Below, piece after piece: positions 1 through 8,295 of a stretch of 8,295 nt of DNA (the first letter of the stretch is position 1; each line of letters opens with the position of its first letter). Origin of the DNA: Naegleria gruberi (lineage: Eukaryota); assembly GCA_000004985.1 (NCBI GenBank), contig GG739074.1; one strand, given 5' to 3'. The notes beneath the pieces were generated by a model, which worked only from the letters and a program-made list of their open reading frames with translations, was not told where the DNA came from and did no database searches. Both the position numbers and the translations under genes were made by a program.

Positions 1-370
1 AAATAATGAAATAATTTTGAATGTGAATATTTAAATTTTATAAATTCACAAATAATAATTATTTGTTTAAAAAATGGTGATTTAATTAGATTTGAACCTA
101 TTTTATATTTTAATTATAATATTTAATAAATAATATTCCAAATATAGTAATATAGTAATATTATTATTTTAAAGCCATTGTTAAATAATCTGAAAAACTA
201 TTTTGATAAGTTTCATAATATTCACTATAACTACATCTATCACAACTTAATGTAATAAACATTCTATTTTGTATATTAAATATTTGTGATAATAATCCAC
301 CTGATTCTCTTACTTGTCCTTTATGTAATTCTTTATATCCACATTTTTTCTATTATTTTTTTTTATATTT

Positions 371-431
371 AAATAGTATTTATATTGTAAATAGTATTTA
401 ACAGTATTTAATAGTATTTATATTGTAATAA
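371..431. repeat. Short tandem repeat with a 10-bp unit A(T/C)AGTATTTA. An 18-bp block ATAGTATTTATATTGTAA is duplicated at 373-390 and 411-428.
   Basis: Read directly from the sequence. The core AGTATTTA occurs 4 times, at 375, 393, 403 and 413, and the 18-bp block recurs 38 bp apart. It sits in extremely AT-rich non-coding DNA 3' (on the minus strand) of the ORF that stops at 436-438. Confidence 0.8.
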
Positions 432-435
432 TTAT

Positions 436-810
436 TTAATAAATAATACTTACACATTTCTGATGATGTTGTTTTAATATTTCTTCTTGTTTGGGAAATA
501 TTTTGTTACTAGTATTAGTAGATGAAGAATCAACAATTGATAATCCAATATTATTTAAAGTATTTAAAGTTAATTGTTTAAAATCATCCTTTTCCGATGT
601 TAATGATGGTGTATCTAATATTAATTTATTAATTATTGAATTATTTGATGATTGTGATGGTGATGATATTATTGTAGGTGATGATGAATTGTGATGTGTA
701 ATTGATTGTAAAATATTATTAATTCTACCCTTCCTAATTACATAAACCATCAATAATCTAAATAAATATAATATTACTCCTTTATTAACTAGTGTTGTTA
801 ATACTACCAT
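436..810 (-). CDS. Candidate first coding exon of a minus-strand gene. The product is uncharacterised, with a hydrophobic signal-anchor-like N-terminus and a Ser/Asn-rich low-complexity region.
   Basis: There is a true ATG at 810-808, preceded by an A-rich context (AATAAAAAAATGG on the minus strand). The ORF is 124 codons: MVVLTTLVNKGVILYLFRLLMVYVI... followed by an S/N/T-rich tail. A stop codon (TAA at 438-436) is reached only if an overlapping GTAAGT donor (453-448 on the minus strand) is not used. The antisense ORF 491-694 is shorter and compositionally trivial. No homology search was possible. Confidence 0.4.
   Translation of the reverse strand: MVVLTTLVNKGVILYLFRLLMVYVIRKGRINNILQSITHHNSSSPTIISSPSQSSNNSIINKLILDTPSLTSEKDDFKQLTLNTLNNIGLSIVDSSSTNTSNKIFPKQEEILKQHHQKCVSIIY
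448..453 (-). other. Consensus 5' splice donor GTAAGT (minus strand) directly after codon TGT (Cys, 456-454) of the 436-810 ORF.
   Basis: The plus strand reads ACTTAC at 448-453, which is GTAAGT on the minus strand. The exon would end in phase 0 after ...LKQHHQKC. A possible downstream acceptor (minus-strand TAG) sits at 352-350, opening a 36-nt exon at 349-314 that ends at a second donor GTAAGA (313-308). Confidence 0.3.
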
Positions 811-892
811 TTTTTTATTAGTTTATTAATTTTAATTGATTTGAATATCATCTAATGCATTTGAATGAATAGCAATTAAAGGAAGCACTTCA

Positions 893-903
893 ATTTATAA
901 TAA
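893..903 (-). promoter_or_regulatory. TATA-like element (TTATTATAAAT on the minus strand), ~85-95 bp upstream of ATG 810.
   Basis: The sequence was read directly and the spacing is compatible with a core promoter for the minus-strand exon 436-810. In DNA this AT-rich, TATA-like strings are common by chance. Confidence 0.2.
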
Positions 904-1049
904 TATTCATATTGTAATATAACCAATGTTGTTGTAATAAATATTCAACATTTAAGAGTTACCATCAAGTTCATATATATTGCATAAACAATCAAAATAA
1001 ATGTTGAAACATTACAAAATAATCATTGATTAAATATTTAATAACTGTA

Positions 1050-2147
1050 AATGAACAATTGCATTAACAGAGGTTAGGACCACCGGTGGTATTAAAATAC
1101 CCAATCATTGTACCGATCTACAGCTACTGTTATTTAAATATTGTAATCCACAATGTATTCAAAATTCTTCTTGTTGTCCACGCACTAGTGTATTCAACAC
1201 TTTACAAATATATTAAAAACTTCCCAAAATGTTAATTAATTATTATTTTAAATATTGTGCACAAAATCTTGAACCAGCACGTTTGTAAATGCTCTGGTAA
1301 CACCTTCTTGTATAAGATTCAAACAATCAAATGTTTTAAATATATTTAACAAGTCCCATCGAAGATTTTTCAACATTTAGAAAATTGTTTAATAATTAGT
1401 CAACCCGAATTAAAGTCAACACCTTTTTATTTACGAAAAATACCCGCTAATCAACACGTTTGTTGTTTCCTCAAGATTTATTTTACACATATGGAAAGAG
1501 TGATTAATCTTAAATGTTGTTACAACACTATTAACATGACTATTATATTAAAAAATTTACTTTTGGAAAACGTGCACGATACAACGAACCTTCCCCCCAA
1601 CACCATTTACCAAATGGCAAGTTGAGCGCTCATTTCAAGCCTTGCAAGATTATTCGAGATTGTCTCAAGTCACCTTAAAAATGTGTTGTGTGCGTTACGT
1701 GTTCAACACGTTGTTATCATCATCAAGTCTTTGATCTCGGATGCTGTGAATAAGTTGTTATACATGTCCGGAGTTGAATGAAAATTAATATTGTATCCAT
1801 AGAATGTATTTAAGGTGTATGACCATCATGTAGATTGAAATCTCTTTCCGACGCTGAAAAATTAATGCGATTTTACTTTCCAAAATGAGAGGAAAATTCC
1901 TCAATGTTTCAAACTGCCGCAATTGTTTGTGCACCATTTGCGTCATTTATCACACAGATGCAACGAAGTGGTGGAGGACAACCAAGTGAATTGGTCCATT
2001 GATTAGCACAATTTTTAAAATCCGAAACCTTTACACAACATTTCTCTCAACAACAGAGAGGGAAAGGACGCAAGTGAAAAACTCTTCAAAGAAAAAAAAC
2101 AGTTCACTCAAATTTACTCAATTAACAAACTTAAAGAACTGTTTGCA
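1050..2147. promoter_or_regulatory. GC-richer non-coding block between two divergently oriented open frames. It may be shared promoter and 5'-UTR sequence, and it is dense in short palindromes.
   Basis: Composition shifts visibly, with many more C/G than in 1-1050. No ORF of 60 aa or more exists in any frame. Palindromes: ACCACCGGTGGT 1079-1090, CGTGCACG 1571-1578, CCATTTACCAAATGG 1603-1617, TGAGCGCTCA 1623-1632, CTTGCAAG 1641-1648, ACGTGTTCAACACGT 1697-1711. The 9-mer CACGTTTGT repeats at 1278-1286 and 1455-1463, with a variant CACGTTGTT at 1707-1715. A TATA-like TATTTAAG lies at ~1809-1816. Confidence 0.3.
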
Positions 2148-2279
2148 ATGCTGTTAAATATTAATAATACAAATATTGAAAATGTCATTAATCAATTAGA
2201 GGTTAGATATGAATTTAACTTGACATTATCTAATTCTAATATAATACTACAAACATGTTTTAATAGTGATGAAATGGTG
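2148..2279 (+). CDS. Partial 5' end of a plus-strand coding exon that runs into the N-run. The product is unknown and its N-terminus is Asn/Ile-rich.
   Basis: ATG at 2148-2150, then 44 codons: MLLNINNTNIENVINQLEVRYEFNLTLSNSNIILQTCFNSDEMV. This frame is open for 87 codons from 2019 (stop TAA 2016-2018) with no earlier ATG. A polypyrimidine-CAG acceptor-like site (TTTCTCTCAACAACAG) ends at 2056, so the exon could alternatively begin there in phase 2. The openness is unusual for AT-rich DNA, but the segment is short. Confidence 0.3.
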
Positions 2280-5200
2280 NNNNNNNNNNNNNNNNNNNNN
2301 NNNNNNNNNNNNNNNNNNNNNNNNNNNNNNNNNNNNNNNNNNNNNNNNNNNNNNNNNNNNNNNNNNNNNNNNNNNNNNNNNNNNNNNNNNNNNNNNNNNN
2401 NNNNNNNNNNNNNNNNNNNNNNNNNNNNNNNNNNNNNNNNNNNNNNNNNNNNNNNNNNNNNNNNNNNNNNNNNNNNNNNNNNNNNNNNNNNNNNNNNNNN
2501 NNNNNNNNNNNNNNNNNNNNNNNNNNNNNNNNNNNNNNNNNNNNNNNNNNNNNNNNNNNNNNNNNNNNNNNNNNNNNNNNNNNNNNNNNNNNNNNNNNNN
2601 NNNNNNNNNNNNNNNNNNNNNNNNNNNNNNNNNNNNNNNNNNNNNNNNNNNNNNNNNNNNNNNNNNNNNNNNNNNNNNNNNNNNNNNNNNNNNNNNNNNN
2701 NNNNNNNNNNNNNNNNNNNNNNNNNNNNNNNNNNNNNNNNNNNNNNNNNNNNNNNNNNNNNNNNNNNNNNNNNNNNNNNNNNNNNNNNNNNNNNNNNNNN
2801 NNNNNNNNNNNNNNNNNNNNNNNNNNNNNNNNNNNNNNNNNNNNNNNNNNNNNNNNNNNNNNNNNNNNNNNNNNNNNNNNNNNNNNNNNNNNNNNNNNNN
2901 NNNNNNNNNNNNNNNNNNNNNNNNNNNNNNNNNNNNNNNNNNNNNNNNNNNNNNNNNNNNNNNNNNNNNNNNNNNNNNNNNNNNNNNNNNNNNNNNNNNN
3001 NNNNNNNNNNNNNNNNNNNNNNNNNNNNNNNNNNNNNNNNNNNNNNNNNNNNNNNNNNNNNNNNNNNNNNNNNNNNNNNNNNNNNNNNNNNNNNNNNNNN
3101 NNNNNNNNNNNNNNNNNNNNNNNNNNNNNNNNNNNNNNNNNNNNNNNNNNNNNNNNNNNNNNNNNNNNNNNNNNNNNNNNNNNNNNNNNNNNNNNNNNNN
3201 NNNNNNNNNNNNNNNNNNNNNNNNNNNNNNNNNNNNNNNNNNNNNNNNNNNNNNNNNNNNNNNNNNNNNNNNNNNNNNNNNNNNNNNNNNNNNNNNNNNN
3301 NNNNNNNNNNNNNNNNNNNNNNNNNNNNNNNNNNNNNNNNNNNNNNNNNNNNNNNNNNNNNNNNNNNNNNNNNNNNNNNNNNNNNNNNNNNNNNNNNNNN
3401 NNNNNNNNNNNNNNNNNNNNNNNNNNNNNNNNNNNNNNNNNNNNNNNNNNNNNNNNNNNNNNNNNNNNNNNNNNNNNNNNNNNNNNNNNNNNNNNNNNNN
3501 NNNNNNNNNNNNNNNNNNNNNNNNNNNNNNNNNNNNNNNNNNNNNNNNNNNNNNNNNNNNNNNNNNNNNNNNNNNNNNNNNNNNNNNNNNNNNNNNNNNN
3601 NNNNNNNNNNNNNNNNNNNNNNNNNNNNNNNNNNNNNNNNNNNNNNNNNNNNNNNNNNNNNNNNNNNNNNNNNNNNNNNNNNNNNNNNNNNNNNNNNNNN
3701 NNNNNNNNNNNNNNNNNNNNNNNNNNNNNNNNNNNNNNNNNNNNNNNNNNNNNNNNNNNNNNNNNNNNNNNNNNNNNNNNNNNNNNNNNNNNNNNNNNNN
3801 NNNNNNNNNNNNNNNNNNNNNNNNNNNNNNNNNNNNNNNNNNNNNNNNNNNNNNNNNNNNNNNNNNNNNNNNNNNNNNNNNNNNNNNNNNNNNNNNNNNN
3901 NNNNNNNNNNNNNNNNNNNNNNNNNNNNNNNNNNNNNNNNNNNNNNNNNNNNNNNNNNNNNNNNNNNNNNNNNNNNNNNNNNNNNNNNNNNNNNNNNNNN
4001 NNNNNNNNNNNNNNNNNNNNNNNNNNNNNNNNNNNNNNNNNNNNNNNNNNNNNNNNNNNNNNNNNNNNNNNNNNNNNNNNNNNNNNNNNNNNNNNNNNNN
4101 NNNNNNNNNNNNNNNNNNNNNNNNNNNNNNNNNNNNNNNNNNNNNNNNNNNNNNNNNNNNNNNNNNNNNNNNNNNNNNNNNNNNNNNNNNNNNNNNNNNN
4201 NNNNNNNNNNNNNNNNNNNNNNNNNNNNNNNNNNNNNNNNNNNNNNNNNNNNNNNNNNNNNNNNNNNNNNNNNNNNNNNNNNNNNNNNNNNNNNNNNNNN
4301 NNNNNNNNNNNNNNNNNNNNNNNNNNNNNNNNNNNNNNNNNNNNNNNNNNNNNNNNNNNNNNNNNNNNNNNNNNNNNNNNNNNNNNNNNNNNNNNNNNNN
4401 NNNNNNNNNNNNNNNNNNNNNNNNNNNNNNNNNNNNNNNNNNNNNNNNNNNNNNNNNNNNNNNNNNNNNNNNNNNNNNNNNNNNNNNNNNNNNNNNNNNN
4501 NNNNNNNNNNNNNNNNNNNNNNNNNNNNNNNNNNNNNNNNNNNNNNNNNNNNNNNNNNNNNNNNNNNNNNNNNNNNNNNNNNNNNNNNNNNNNNNNNNNN
4601 NNNNNNNNNNNNNNNNNNNNNNNNNNNNNNNNNNNNNNNNNNNNNNNNNNNNNNNNNNNNNNNNNNNNNNNNNNNNNNNNNNNNNNNNNNNNNNNNNNNN
4701 NNNNNNNNNNNNNNNNNNNNNNNNNNNNNNNNNNNNNNNNNNNNNNNNNNNNNNNNNNNNNNNNNNNNNNNNNNNNNNNNNNNNNNNNNNNNNNNNNNNN
4801 NNNNNNNNNNNNNNNNNNNNNNNNNNNNNNNNNNNNNNNNNNNNNNNNNNNNNNNNNNNNNNNNNNNNNNNNNNNNNNNNNNNNNNNNNNNNNNNNNNNN
4901 NNNNNNNNNNNNNNNNNNNNNNNNNNNNNNNNNNNNNNNNNNNNNNNNNNNNNNNNNNNNNNNNNNNNNNNNNNNNNNNNNNNNNNNNNNNNNNNNNNNN
5001 NNNNNNNNNNNNNNNNNNNNNNNNNNNNNNNNNNNNNNNNNNNNNNNNNNNNNNNNNNNNNNNNNNNNNNNNNNNNNNNNNNNNNNNNNNNNNNNNNNNN
5101 NNNNNNNNNNNNNNNNNNNNNNNNNNNNNNNNNNNNNNNNNNNNNNNNNNNNNNNNNNNNNNNNNNNNNNNNNNNNNNNNNNNNNNNNNNNNNNNNNNNN

Positions 5201-6359
5201 NNNNNNNNNNNNNNNNNNNNNNNNNNNNNNNNNNNNNNNNNNNNNNNNNNNNNNNNNNNNNNNNNNNNNNNNNNNNNNNNNNNNNNNNNNNNNNNNNNNN
5301 NNNNNNNNNNNNNNNNNNNNNNNNNNNNNNNNNNNNNNNNNNNNNNNNNNNNNNNNNNNNNNNNNNNNNNNNNNNNNNNNNNNNNNNNNNNNNNNNNNNN
5401 NNNNNNNNNNNNNNNNNNNNNNNNNNNNNNNNNNNNNNNNNNNNNNNNNNNNNNNNNNNNNNNNNNNNNNNNNNNNNNNNNNNNNNNNNNNNNNNNNNNN
5501 NNNNNNNNNNNNNNNNNNNNNNNNNNNNNNNNNNNNNNNNNNNNNNNNNNNNNNNNNNNNNNNNNNNNNNNNNNNNNNNNNNNNNNNNNNNNNNNNNNNN
5601 NNNNNNNNNNNNNNNNNNNNNNNNNNNNNNNNNNNNNNNNNNNNNNNNNNNNNNNNNNNNNNNNNNNNNNNNNNNNNNNNNNNNNNNNNNNNNNNNNNNN
5701 NNNNNNNNNNNNNNNNNNNNNNNNNNNNNNNNNNNNNNNNNNNNNNNNNNNNNNNNNNNNNNNNNNNNNNNNNNNNNNNNNNNNNNNNNNNNNNNNNNNN
5801 NNNNNNNNNNNNNNNNNNNNNNNNNNNNNNNNNNNNNNNNNNNNNNNNNNNNNNNNNNNNNNNNNNNNNNNNNNNNNNNNNNNNNNNNNNNNNNNNNNNN
5901 NNNNNNNNNNNNNNNNNNNNNNNNNNNNNNNNNNNNNNNNNNNNNNNNNNNNNNNNNNNNNNNNNNNNNNNNNNNNNNNNNNNNNNNNNNNNNNNNNNNN
6001 NNNNNNNNNNNNNNNNNNNNNNNNNNNNNNNNNNNNNNNNNNNNNNNNNNNNNNNNNNNNNNNNNNNNNNNNNNNNNNNNNNNNNNNNNNNNNNNNNNNN
6101 NNNNNNNNNNNNNNNNNNNNNNNNNNNNNNNNNNNNNNNNNNNNNNNNNNNNNNNNNNNNNNNNNNNNNNNNNNNNNNNNNNNNNNNNNNNNNNNNNNNN
6201 NNNNNNNNNNNNNNNNNNNNNNNNNNNNNNNNNNNNNNNNNNNNNNNNNNNNNNNNNNNNNNNNNNNNNNNNNNNNNNNNNNNNNNNNNNNNNNNNNNNN
6301 NNNNNNNNNNNNNNNNNNNNNNNNNNNNNNNNNNNNNNNNNNNNNNNNNNNNNNNNNNN
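2280..6359. other. A 4,080-nt run of N (assembly gap or hard-masked segment). It has no interpretable sequence.
   Basis: Every base from 2280 to 6359 is n. The track ORFs 2148-6383(+), 2266-6393(+), 2192-6391(-) and 2247-6599(-) consist almost entirely of X and exist only because N-codons are not stops. Confidence 0.97.
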
Positions 6360-7278: not shown

Positions 7279-7506
7279 CTATTTAAAATCATCAAATTCT
7301 TCTAATTGTCTGGCAAGTATATCATCATGTTGAGGATAATTTGGGATTGGTATGATAAATATTTCTGGATATGACATTATATCTTTGTTTCTATTGATAA
7401 TATCTCTCATTTCAGAAATCATTTCCCCATGAAACATAGATACTCTTTTGTATCTTTTGTTTAACATCTCCATAGCACGTAAATCCTTCTCAAGCAAGTA
7501 AAATAA
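7279..7506 (-). CDS. Candidate terminal coding exon of the minus-strand gene, in a different frame from the upstream exons. It ends ...PIPNYPQHDDILARQLEEFDDFK*.
   Basis: This frame is open for 75 codons from 7506 (stop TGA at 7509-7507) to TAA at 7281-7279. The listed start at 7497 is a TTG. The pyrimidine-rich tract TTTTACTTGCTTGAG (minus strand, ending with AG at 7490-7489) looks like a 3' splice site, which would start the exon at 7488 (AAG GAT TTA CGT = KDLR). The frame differs by +2 from 7464-7644, so the junction needs a 3k+2 intron or a frameshift. Confidence 0.4.
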   Translation of the reverse strand, partial: LFYLLEKDLRAMEMLNKRYKRVSMFHGEMISEMRDIINRNKDIMSYPEIFIIPIPNYPQHDDILARQLEEFDDFK

Positions 7507-7644
7507 TCAAAGGTTAAAACCTGTCCTGAAGATGTTTTAACAGTAGATTTTCGTGGTTTTTTACCTTGTTCAATTTCTTTACAAATATTTAAGTGAAATT
7601 GGCTTATATCAGCAATAGGTGAAATGATTACCAATAATGGATAT
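7464..7644 (-). CDS. Coding segment continuing the same reading frame as 7687-8295 after the 42-nt intron.
   Basis: The frame is open for ~60 codons with no Met: YPLLVIISPIADISQFHLNICKEIEQGKKPRKSTVKTSSGQVLTFDYFTCLRRIYVLWRC, then TAA at 7463-7461. The ORF track omitted it because it has no start codon. Confidence 0.35.
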
Positions 7645-7686
7645 CTTGAAATATAGCTGAGTTAAGTAATTCAAGAGGAAACTTAC
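7645..7686 (-). other. Inferred 42-nt intron (GTAAGT...TTTCAAG) in the minus-strand gene.
   Basis: The minus strand reads GTAAGTTTCCTCTTGAATTACTTAACTCAGCTATATTTCAAG. The three in-frame stops are TAA 7685-7683, TGA 7673-7671 and TAA 7664-7662, and they are the only stops in this frame between 8295 and 7464. Removing 42 nt, a multiple of 3, rejoins the frame exactly as ...ENELF-L-YPLLVII.... An alternative acceptor, TCAG ending at 7657, would give a 30-nt intron and is also frame-preserving. Confidence 0.4.
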
Positions 7687-8295
7687 AAGAATAATTCATT
7701 CTCAGTCAGTAGTGTAATTTTCAATGCAATTTCTTCCATTGCAGAGAATGATACCTCTTGTATTTGTTTCAAAAATAAAAATATATATCCCTCTGTTATA
7801 ATAGTGGTGTATAAACTCTGAGATTGAAAAAATATTTCATTATGACGACAATCAACAAGAGATTCAGTCACTGTTTTCTTAAATTTCTCCATTGCTTGAA
7901 AAATAATATCAAGTACCTGTTTGAAAAGAATAAAATTTTGTGGAGTAATTGGGGAAGTTTTCATGTGATCCCAAACACCTGGTAAAAGAAAATCTTCCAA
8001 TTTCATTGAGGTTGAGTGAAAAAATATCTTACTCAGACTTTCAAAAGTATTTTCCAAGCTCTGAACATTATTTTTGAATCTACTTGCAATTTGATCACGA
8101 TACCTTTCGAGTGGTTTGAAAAATTTGTGTTCCCTACCATCCTTATTATTCTCAATGTAAAAATTAATAATTACTAAATAATATTTCAATTTGTAGAGAT
8201 TACCTTCACCTATATATACAATTAAAAGTATGATTGCACTGGCAGCCCAATAAAATTCTGTTGAATAGTCTATTGACAATAGTGCAAATTCTTTA
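7687..8295 (-). CDS. Internal coding exon or exons of a minus-strand gene. It is partial, and the frame stays open past the window end at 8295. The product is uncharacterised.
   Basis: The minus frame is open for ~203 codons from the window edge: KEFALLSIDYSTEFYWAASAIILLIVYIGEGNLYKLKYY...AMEEIALKITLLTENELFL. The track start at 8279 is a TTG artefact. The frame terminates with TAA at 7685-7683, and that TAA is the AA-G-T part of a GTAAGT donor. Confidence 0.55.

Follow-up and report, generated by a model that had tools for sequence, protein, structure and literature searches.

A 42-nucleotide phase-2 intron with a stop codon in its donor as the probable reason for the early end of the NAEGRDRAFT_73164 gene model in Naegleria gruberi

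The minus-strand gene at one end of an 8,295-nt stretch of Naegleria gruberi DNA (contig GG739074.1; the whole stretch is referred to here as the window) raises the question of whether a cluster of three in-frame stops marks the end of its protein or belongs to an intron. Read in codons from 8294, the minus-strand frame stays open between the window edge and 7464, except for TAA at 7685-7683, TGA at 7673-7671 and TAA at 7664-7662, and the next stop in this frame after the three is TAA at 7463-7461. These coordinates agree with the original prediction, which had reported three stops packed into 7685-7662. The open stretch to 7464 that it described is likewise present, but the gene does not end there and runs on in another frame to a TAG at 7281-7279. 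We consider it very probable that the interval 7686-7645 is a conventional U2-type GT-AG spliceosomal intron of 42 nt, in phase 2, in the gene NAEGRDRAFT_73164.

NAEGRDRAFT_73164 of N. gruberi NEG-M lies on a scaffold of 304 kb, and its product is deposited as a 'predicted protein' (XP_002671717 / EFC38973 / D2VVW5). The upstream exon (7687-8295, minus strand), assigned through its identity with this product, is partial and runs off the window edge. Its codons, read from 8294, encode KEFALLSIDY...LKITLLTENELF and are followed by the TT of a junction codon; the translation is 100% identical to residues about 109-311 of XP_002671717. The annotated protein has 311 amino acids, and its last residues, ...LTENELFL, correspond to termination at the TAA at 7685-7683, within a GTAAGT donor. 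The coding parts of the window are AT-rich, with about 29-33% GC. Half of the window (2280-6359) is filled with 4,080 N, which stand for a gap in the scaffold or for masked sequence, and any ORF listed as crossing it is an artefact. The sequence is extremely AT-rich at 1-1000, where GC is 16-21%. Positions 1250-2000 have a coding-like GC content of 33-36%, yet in none of the frames does an ORF exceed about 50 codons; these two stretches could represent a gene interrupted by several short introns, or a decayed element. The window gave no match in Rfam and tRNA scans.

The candidate intron, GTAAGTTTCCTCTTGAATTACTTAACTCAGCTATATTTCAAG (7686-7645, minus strand), begins with the 5′ splice site GTAAGT at 7686-7681, a hexamer that is found only twice in the window when both strands are considered (7686-7681 and 453-448, both on the minus strand). 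It closes with TTTCAAG, which is followed by A in the exon, so that the 3′ splice site AG occupies 7646-7645 as part of a CAAG at 7648-7645. Excision of these 42 nt keeps the frame open over 60 further codons (...ENELFLYPLLVIISPIADISQFHLNICKEIEQG...WRC*) and gives the junction product ...LTENELFLYPLLVIISPIADISQFHLNICKEIEQG..., exactly as written in the original prediction, which had also correctly seen that the first stop is embedded in GTAAGT. When all GT..AG pairs spanning the stops are considered, only excisions of 42 nt, 30 nt (7686-7657) and 84 nt keep the frame. The base composition implies a stop probability of 0.08 per codon, at which an open run of 57-60 codons has a p of about 0.007-0.009, and 1.8% of the inter-stop runs in the window reach this length. 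Because such runs are so rare, and because GTAAGT is so infrequent here, chance is an unlikely source of the downstream open frame.

At the protein level, the product of the 42-nt splice aligns without gaps across the junction with 12 family members (alignments A1 and A5; 13 members), and an invariant HL follows ELF by 17 residues in all 13 aligned members, with further invariant residues downstream. The proteins P0004 (NAEGRDRAFT_74274) and P0003/P0007 (NAEGRDRAFT_76254/73231) read straight through the site with 43-47% identity, and they share the motif ELF-P-16 residues-HL..CK.(I/V)E.GLKPR...ITFD.FSILEKD.RA...RYRR.... Over the full length, the identity of the window product to P0004 and P0007 is 46-47%. 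The window product carries the family block ...EE.ALKIT..TE.ELF-17aa-HL..CK.IE.G...DY..IL.KD.RAL...KRYKRV (profile A3/A5). An exhaustive search, for which a profile of database proteins served as the query, found 88 family members, many of which span profile position 283, the equivalent of the junction. Four ORF calls stop exactly at this position (P0012, P0015, P0016 and P0020) and three start just past it (P0023, P0033 and P0038), as is expected of ORF calling in the prokaryotic style where an intron intervenes. The search for colinear homologs across the junction, proposed as a check on the original prediction, was therefore positive, with dozens of family members gap-free over ...ENELF and the residues beyond it. 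The homologs that end at the TAA comprise only truncated automatic models or ORF calls (P0001, P0002, P0006, P0012, P0015, P0016), and no independent full-length case is found among them.

The corresponding site was then compared in paralogous DNA, taken from metagenome and Logan contigs; exact-protein look-up had returned no genomic loci on record for P0001-P0004. We assumed the comparison metagenome contigs to be DNA and not RNA assemblies, which is supported by contigs that carry several genes, for instance 9 called genes on the 8.8 kb of L009 and two convergent ones on L001. In four other paralogs, the codon next to ...(L/Y)F is interrupted by GTAAGT behind its second base, again in phase 2, and an AG restores the 17-residue spacing. 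The intron measures 49 nt in the NAEGRDRAFT_73231-like sequence of L002/L003, 42 nt in the NAEGRDRAFT_73161-like sequence of L005/L006, 46 nt in the XP_002674804-like sequence of L007, and 37 nt in L008/L010 and the JGI contig L009, which are metagenome contigs from two other samples. All five paralogous introns start with GTAAGT, and the paralog acceptors read TTAG, ATAG, ACAG, ATAG and AAAG. Of these lengths, 49, 46 and 37 nt are not divisible by 3, so that the paralogs concerned can reach their conserved downstream ORF by splicing only.

For two members of the family, the intron at this site is already part of the public annotation, namely in the NCBI models XP_002671753 (P0007, NAEGRDRAFT_73231) and XP_002671856 (P0100, NAEGRDRAFT_73161). 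These introns, of 49 and 42 nt, resemble that of the window in their codon position (2 nt after ...E.[LY]F), their phase 2, their TAA-bearing GTAAGT donor and the 17-residue spacing from ELF to HL once spliced, but beyond the splice signals their sequences are unrelated to it. In contrast, the intron is unannotated in NAEGRDRAFT_73164, NAEGRDRAFT_75206 and NAEGRDRAFT_76257, whose models stop at the TAA. The site is without an intron in L001 (P0010; lineage P0004/P0010) and in the contiguous ORFs P0013 and P0014. Since site and phase are shared among paralogs, and since these intron-less copies exist, the intron is old within the family and has been lost or gained in some lineages.

Several further observations concern these paralogous loci. 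The model of P0097 (XP_002674804) has a 73-nt intron at L007 1270-1345, after which 8 residues remain in place of the family's 17, whereas the acceptor of the 46-nt form gives 17; the model, a 716-aa 'TB2_DP1_HVA22 domain-containing protein', looks like a transcription-factor gene fused with a neighbouring gene. Contig L009 (JGI metagenome 3300002220, 8,848 bp, 38.5% GC) holds three tandem family members at 2-4808, one intron-less at the site (2107-3204), one with the 37-nt intron (3506-4808) and a third broken by an N gap. The N. gruberi members NAEGRDRAFT_73161, 73164, 73199 and 73231 are located on scaffolds of about 304-306 kb. Together with the L009 trio, this suggests that the family has expanded in tandem. 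When the family alignment was used to scan JGI metagenome contigs, 295 pattern hits were obtained and none was confirmed.

A nearly identical copy of the locus comes from another sample, in the contig L004 (ENA ERZ929261 / ERR1078381), which was reached via P0023 and is 99.5% identical to window positions 8102-7173. This contig keeps the 42-nt interval together with all three stops, and differs within the interval by one substitution (7676 T>A). The exonic differences from the window amount to three substitutions, at 7806, 7773 and 7709, all of them synonymous. Once spliced, L004 reads uninterrupted as ...ENELFLYPLL...TFDYFNLLEKDLRAMEMLNKRYKRV...EEFDDFK*, and its post-intron ORF is intact for 122 codons. 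The 363 nt of the downstream exon are free of substitutions, while the 3′ flank has 7 indels and, over 276 nt, 23 substitutions (Fisher p = 2e-9); by this difference, the downstream exon is under purifying selection, with the same constraint as the upstream exon. Between window 7279-6990 and L004 815-1123, the divergence rises from <0.5% (coding) to about 8% with many indels, beginning ~170 nt past the stop codon; this jump marks the end of constrained sequence, i.e. a 3′ UTR or intergenic boundary. A literature search on PRJEB11402/ERR1078381 found nothing useful.

The downstream exon (7279-7644, minus strand), as delimited by the homolog alignment and L004, contributes the third base of the junction codon (TT plus A, Leu), continues as YPLLVIISPIADISQFHLNICKEIEQGKKPRKSTVKTSSGQVLTFDYF[N]LLEKDLRAMEMLNKRYKRV...QHDDILARQLEEFDDFK and ends with the TAG at 7281-7279. 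Relative to L004 and all paralogs, the window lacks one base in this exon, 146 nt downstream of the intron. In a DNA alignment with L001, L002 and L004, the 1-nt deletion falls at 7498-7499 (minus strand), where TATTTT-ACTTG of the window is paired with TATTTTAACTTG. Taken literally, the window frame after the intron ends at the TAA at 7463-7461, following ...TFDYFTCLRRIYVLWRC, while the family-conserved continuation LEKDLRAMEMLNKRYKRV... is encoded in another frame, by a 72-aa ORF at 7279-7497. The last exon is thus split into ORFs of 57 and 72 aa because one A is missing at about 7499. The coding region runs ~60 codons further beyond this frame shift, and the 72 codons after the lesion are intact. 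A second intron that would bridge the two frames near 7499 was considered and rejected, as each GT/GC/AT-AG/AC excision deletes residues of the conserved LTFDYF.ILEKDL, no good donor is present, and against L004 the window is short of just one A. For the missing base, a very recent, NEG-M-specific lesion is about as likely an explanation as an error of base calling or assembly in the reference. Should the frameshift be genuine, the gene may be decaying in NEG-M.

Within the interval, an upstream AG at 7658-7657 (minus strand) has to be weighed as an alternative acceptor. If it were the main one, the intron would be real but only 30 nt long, and four extra residues would be inserted (ELF-FYISRYPLL...). 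The original prediction had named this site as workable, and rightly so with respect to the frame, which is kept with no stop left; introns of about 30 nt are moreover deemed possible in Naegleria. The spacing of the family speaks against it, as the distance from ELF to HL is 21 residues with the 30-nt splice but the invariant 17 with the 42-nt splice. The position of the only branch-like motif in the interval also bears on the choice. This motif, CTTAAC at 7666-7661 (minus strand), was found by inspection only, by comparison with yUnAy, and no comparable motif is evident in L008; it may represent the branch point. Its candidate branch A at 7662 is 17 nt upstream of the 42-nt acceptor but only 5 nt upstream of the 30-nt acceptor. 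In L007, a CTTAAT lies 17 nt upstream of the acceptor, and the family-colinear acceptors of L005 and L007 sit 13-17 nt after a comparable motif. From the 17-residue spacing, and from the closeness of the upstream AG to the putative branch point, we infer that the 42-nt acceptor is preferred over the 30-nt acceptor; that the latter is the main site seems quite improbable.

Two other readings would dispense with the intron altogether. The TAA at 7685-7683 could be the true end of the gene, with the downstream frames as the relic of a truncated or pseudogenised copy. The NCBI/JGI model and two paralog models end there, and the window carries the frameshift at about 7499, which would suit a relic. 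A relic would nevertheless be hard to reconcile with the absence of substitutions over 363 nt next to a 3′ flank that has diverged by 8%, or with the 122 intact codons of the spliced ORF in L004. It would also leave complete splice signals exactly where paralogs have an annotated intron, and it would cut off the most conserved block of the family, so we judge this reading to be very improbable. Alternatively, the 42 nt might be a non-intronic insertion, arisen by mutation or as an assembly artefact, that disrupts the gene in frame. Such an insertion is compatible with a length divisible by 3 and with the P0004/P0010 (L001) lineage, which has no insertion at the site. Because 42 is a multiple of 3, preservation of the frame alone cannot separate an intron from an in-frame insertion, and the argument is carried by the stops and the paralogs. 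As the independent assembly L004 has the same 42 nt, and as the site is occupied in four paralogs by different sequences, 37-49 nt long and all of the form GTAAGT...AG, an insertion of this kind is barely conceivable. We therefore retain the 42-nt intron, and infer from the sequence comparisons that 7686-7645 is actually excised from the RNA.

The family to which the gene belongs can be recognized from its more complete members. Full-length family members have an N-terminal fungal-type Zn(2)Cys(6) domain, with PF00172 matched in 7 of the 13 that were scanned (best E = 7e-10), the positive paralogs being P0007, P0017-19, P0022, P0100 and P0102. Neither P0001 nor the spliced window product matches PF00172; this concerns the annotated product, and the 5′ end of the gene lies outside the window and may be mis-modelled. 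A Pfam search with the spliced window product returned no match. The family members match the DNA-binding domains of PUT3, LAC9, HAP1 and GAL4 in the PDB, and in this respect they resemble fungal Zn(2)Cys(6) factors such as Gal4, Put3 and Hap1. They differ from these in the C-terminal region of ~400 residues that follows the Zn cluster, for which there was no Pfam family and no PDB sequence match, and the annotated 73164 product itself is without a Zn cluster. It is the best-conserved part of this C-terminal region that the intron interrupts. An AlphaFold model of P0004, computed from a 4-sequence alignment, had a mean pLDDT of 45, too poor for a fold search, and a literature search on Naegleria Zn-cluster factors found nothing useful. 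NAEGRDRAFT_73164 belongs to this family of transcription-factor-like proteins of the Zn(2)Cys(6) type, which has expanded in Naegleria.

With respect to its size, the intron falls within what has been described for Heterolobosea. N. gruberi has a mean intron length of 203 bp and 1.7 exons per gene (PMC8296547), for Naegleria fowleri a minimum intron of 30 bp was assumed (PMC8296547), and introns of Acrasis kona range from 9 to 95 bp (PMC11589745). A transcriptome of N. gruberi is available as PRJEB23822 (cited in PMC6142364). Like other heterolobosean introns of Naegleria and Acrasis, that of the window has GT-AG ends, is AT-rich and measures tens of nucleotides; compared with the 203-bp mean it is at the short end for N. 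gruberi, but otherwise there is nothing unusual about it. The original prediction had treated the short intron as a clue to the source organism, which it guessed in general terms, and N. gruberi (Heterolobosea) is indeed a protist with short introns.

The early end of the gene model can be explained in a simple way. An unspliced reading meets the TAA at once, and the automatic prediction took that TAA for the gene end. Splicing would join TT and A into a Leu codon, and the protein would continue through HL..CK.IE.G...DYF.ILEKDLRA...KRYKRV to the stop at 7281-7279. The public model of NAEGRDRAFT_73164 therefore appears to have missed the intron, leaving the annotated protein ~120 C-terminal residues short, including the most conserved block. 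The paralog NAEGRDRAFT_75206 (P0002), 90-91% identical to the window product, has a model that ends at the same residue, ...ENELFL, and the model of NAEGRDRAFT_76257 (P0006) has ...ENELFP as its last residues. Both are probably truncated like NAEGRDRAFT_73164, by the same signature of a donor-embedded stop. The three automatic models end at the TAA because a phase-2 GTAAGT intron reads NNG-TAA when it is unspliced.

A phase-2 intron with a stop embedded in its donor, present at one site across many transcription-factor paralogs, could also be imagined as a regulated retention switch. Retained transcripts would then yield a factor cut before the most conserved C-terminal block, or would decay, and the family as a whole would be under post-transcriptional control. 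We regard such a switch as quite improbable; an ancestral intron that was simply inherited would account for the conservation of the site just as well. The locus holds a known gene with a short intron of ordinary type that had not been annotated before, together with an annotation error, and no new biology of splicing or of Naegleria. The practical value of the finding lies in the repair of the NAEGRDRAFT_73164 annotation, and probably also of those of NAEGRDRAFT_75206 and NAEGRDRAFT_76257, and in drawing attention to what is probably an error or lesion of a single base in the reference assembly. For short-intron protists more generally, phase-2 GTAAGT introns constitute a systematic trap for gene predictors.
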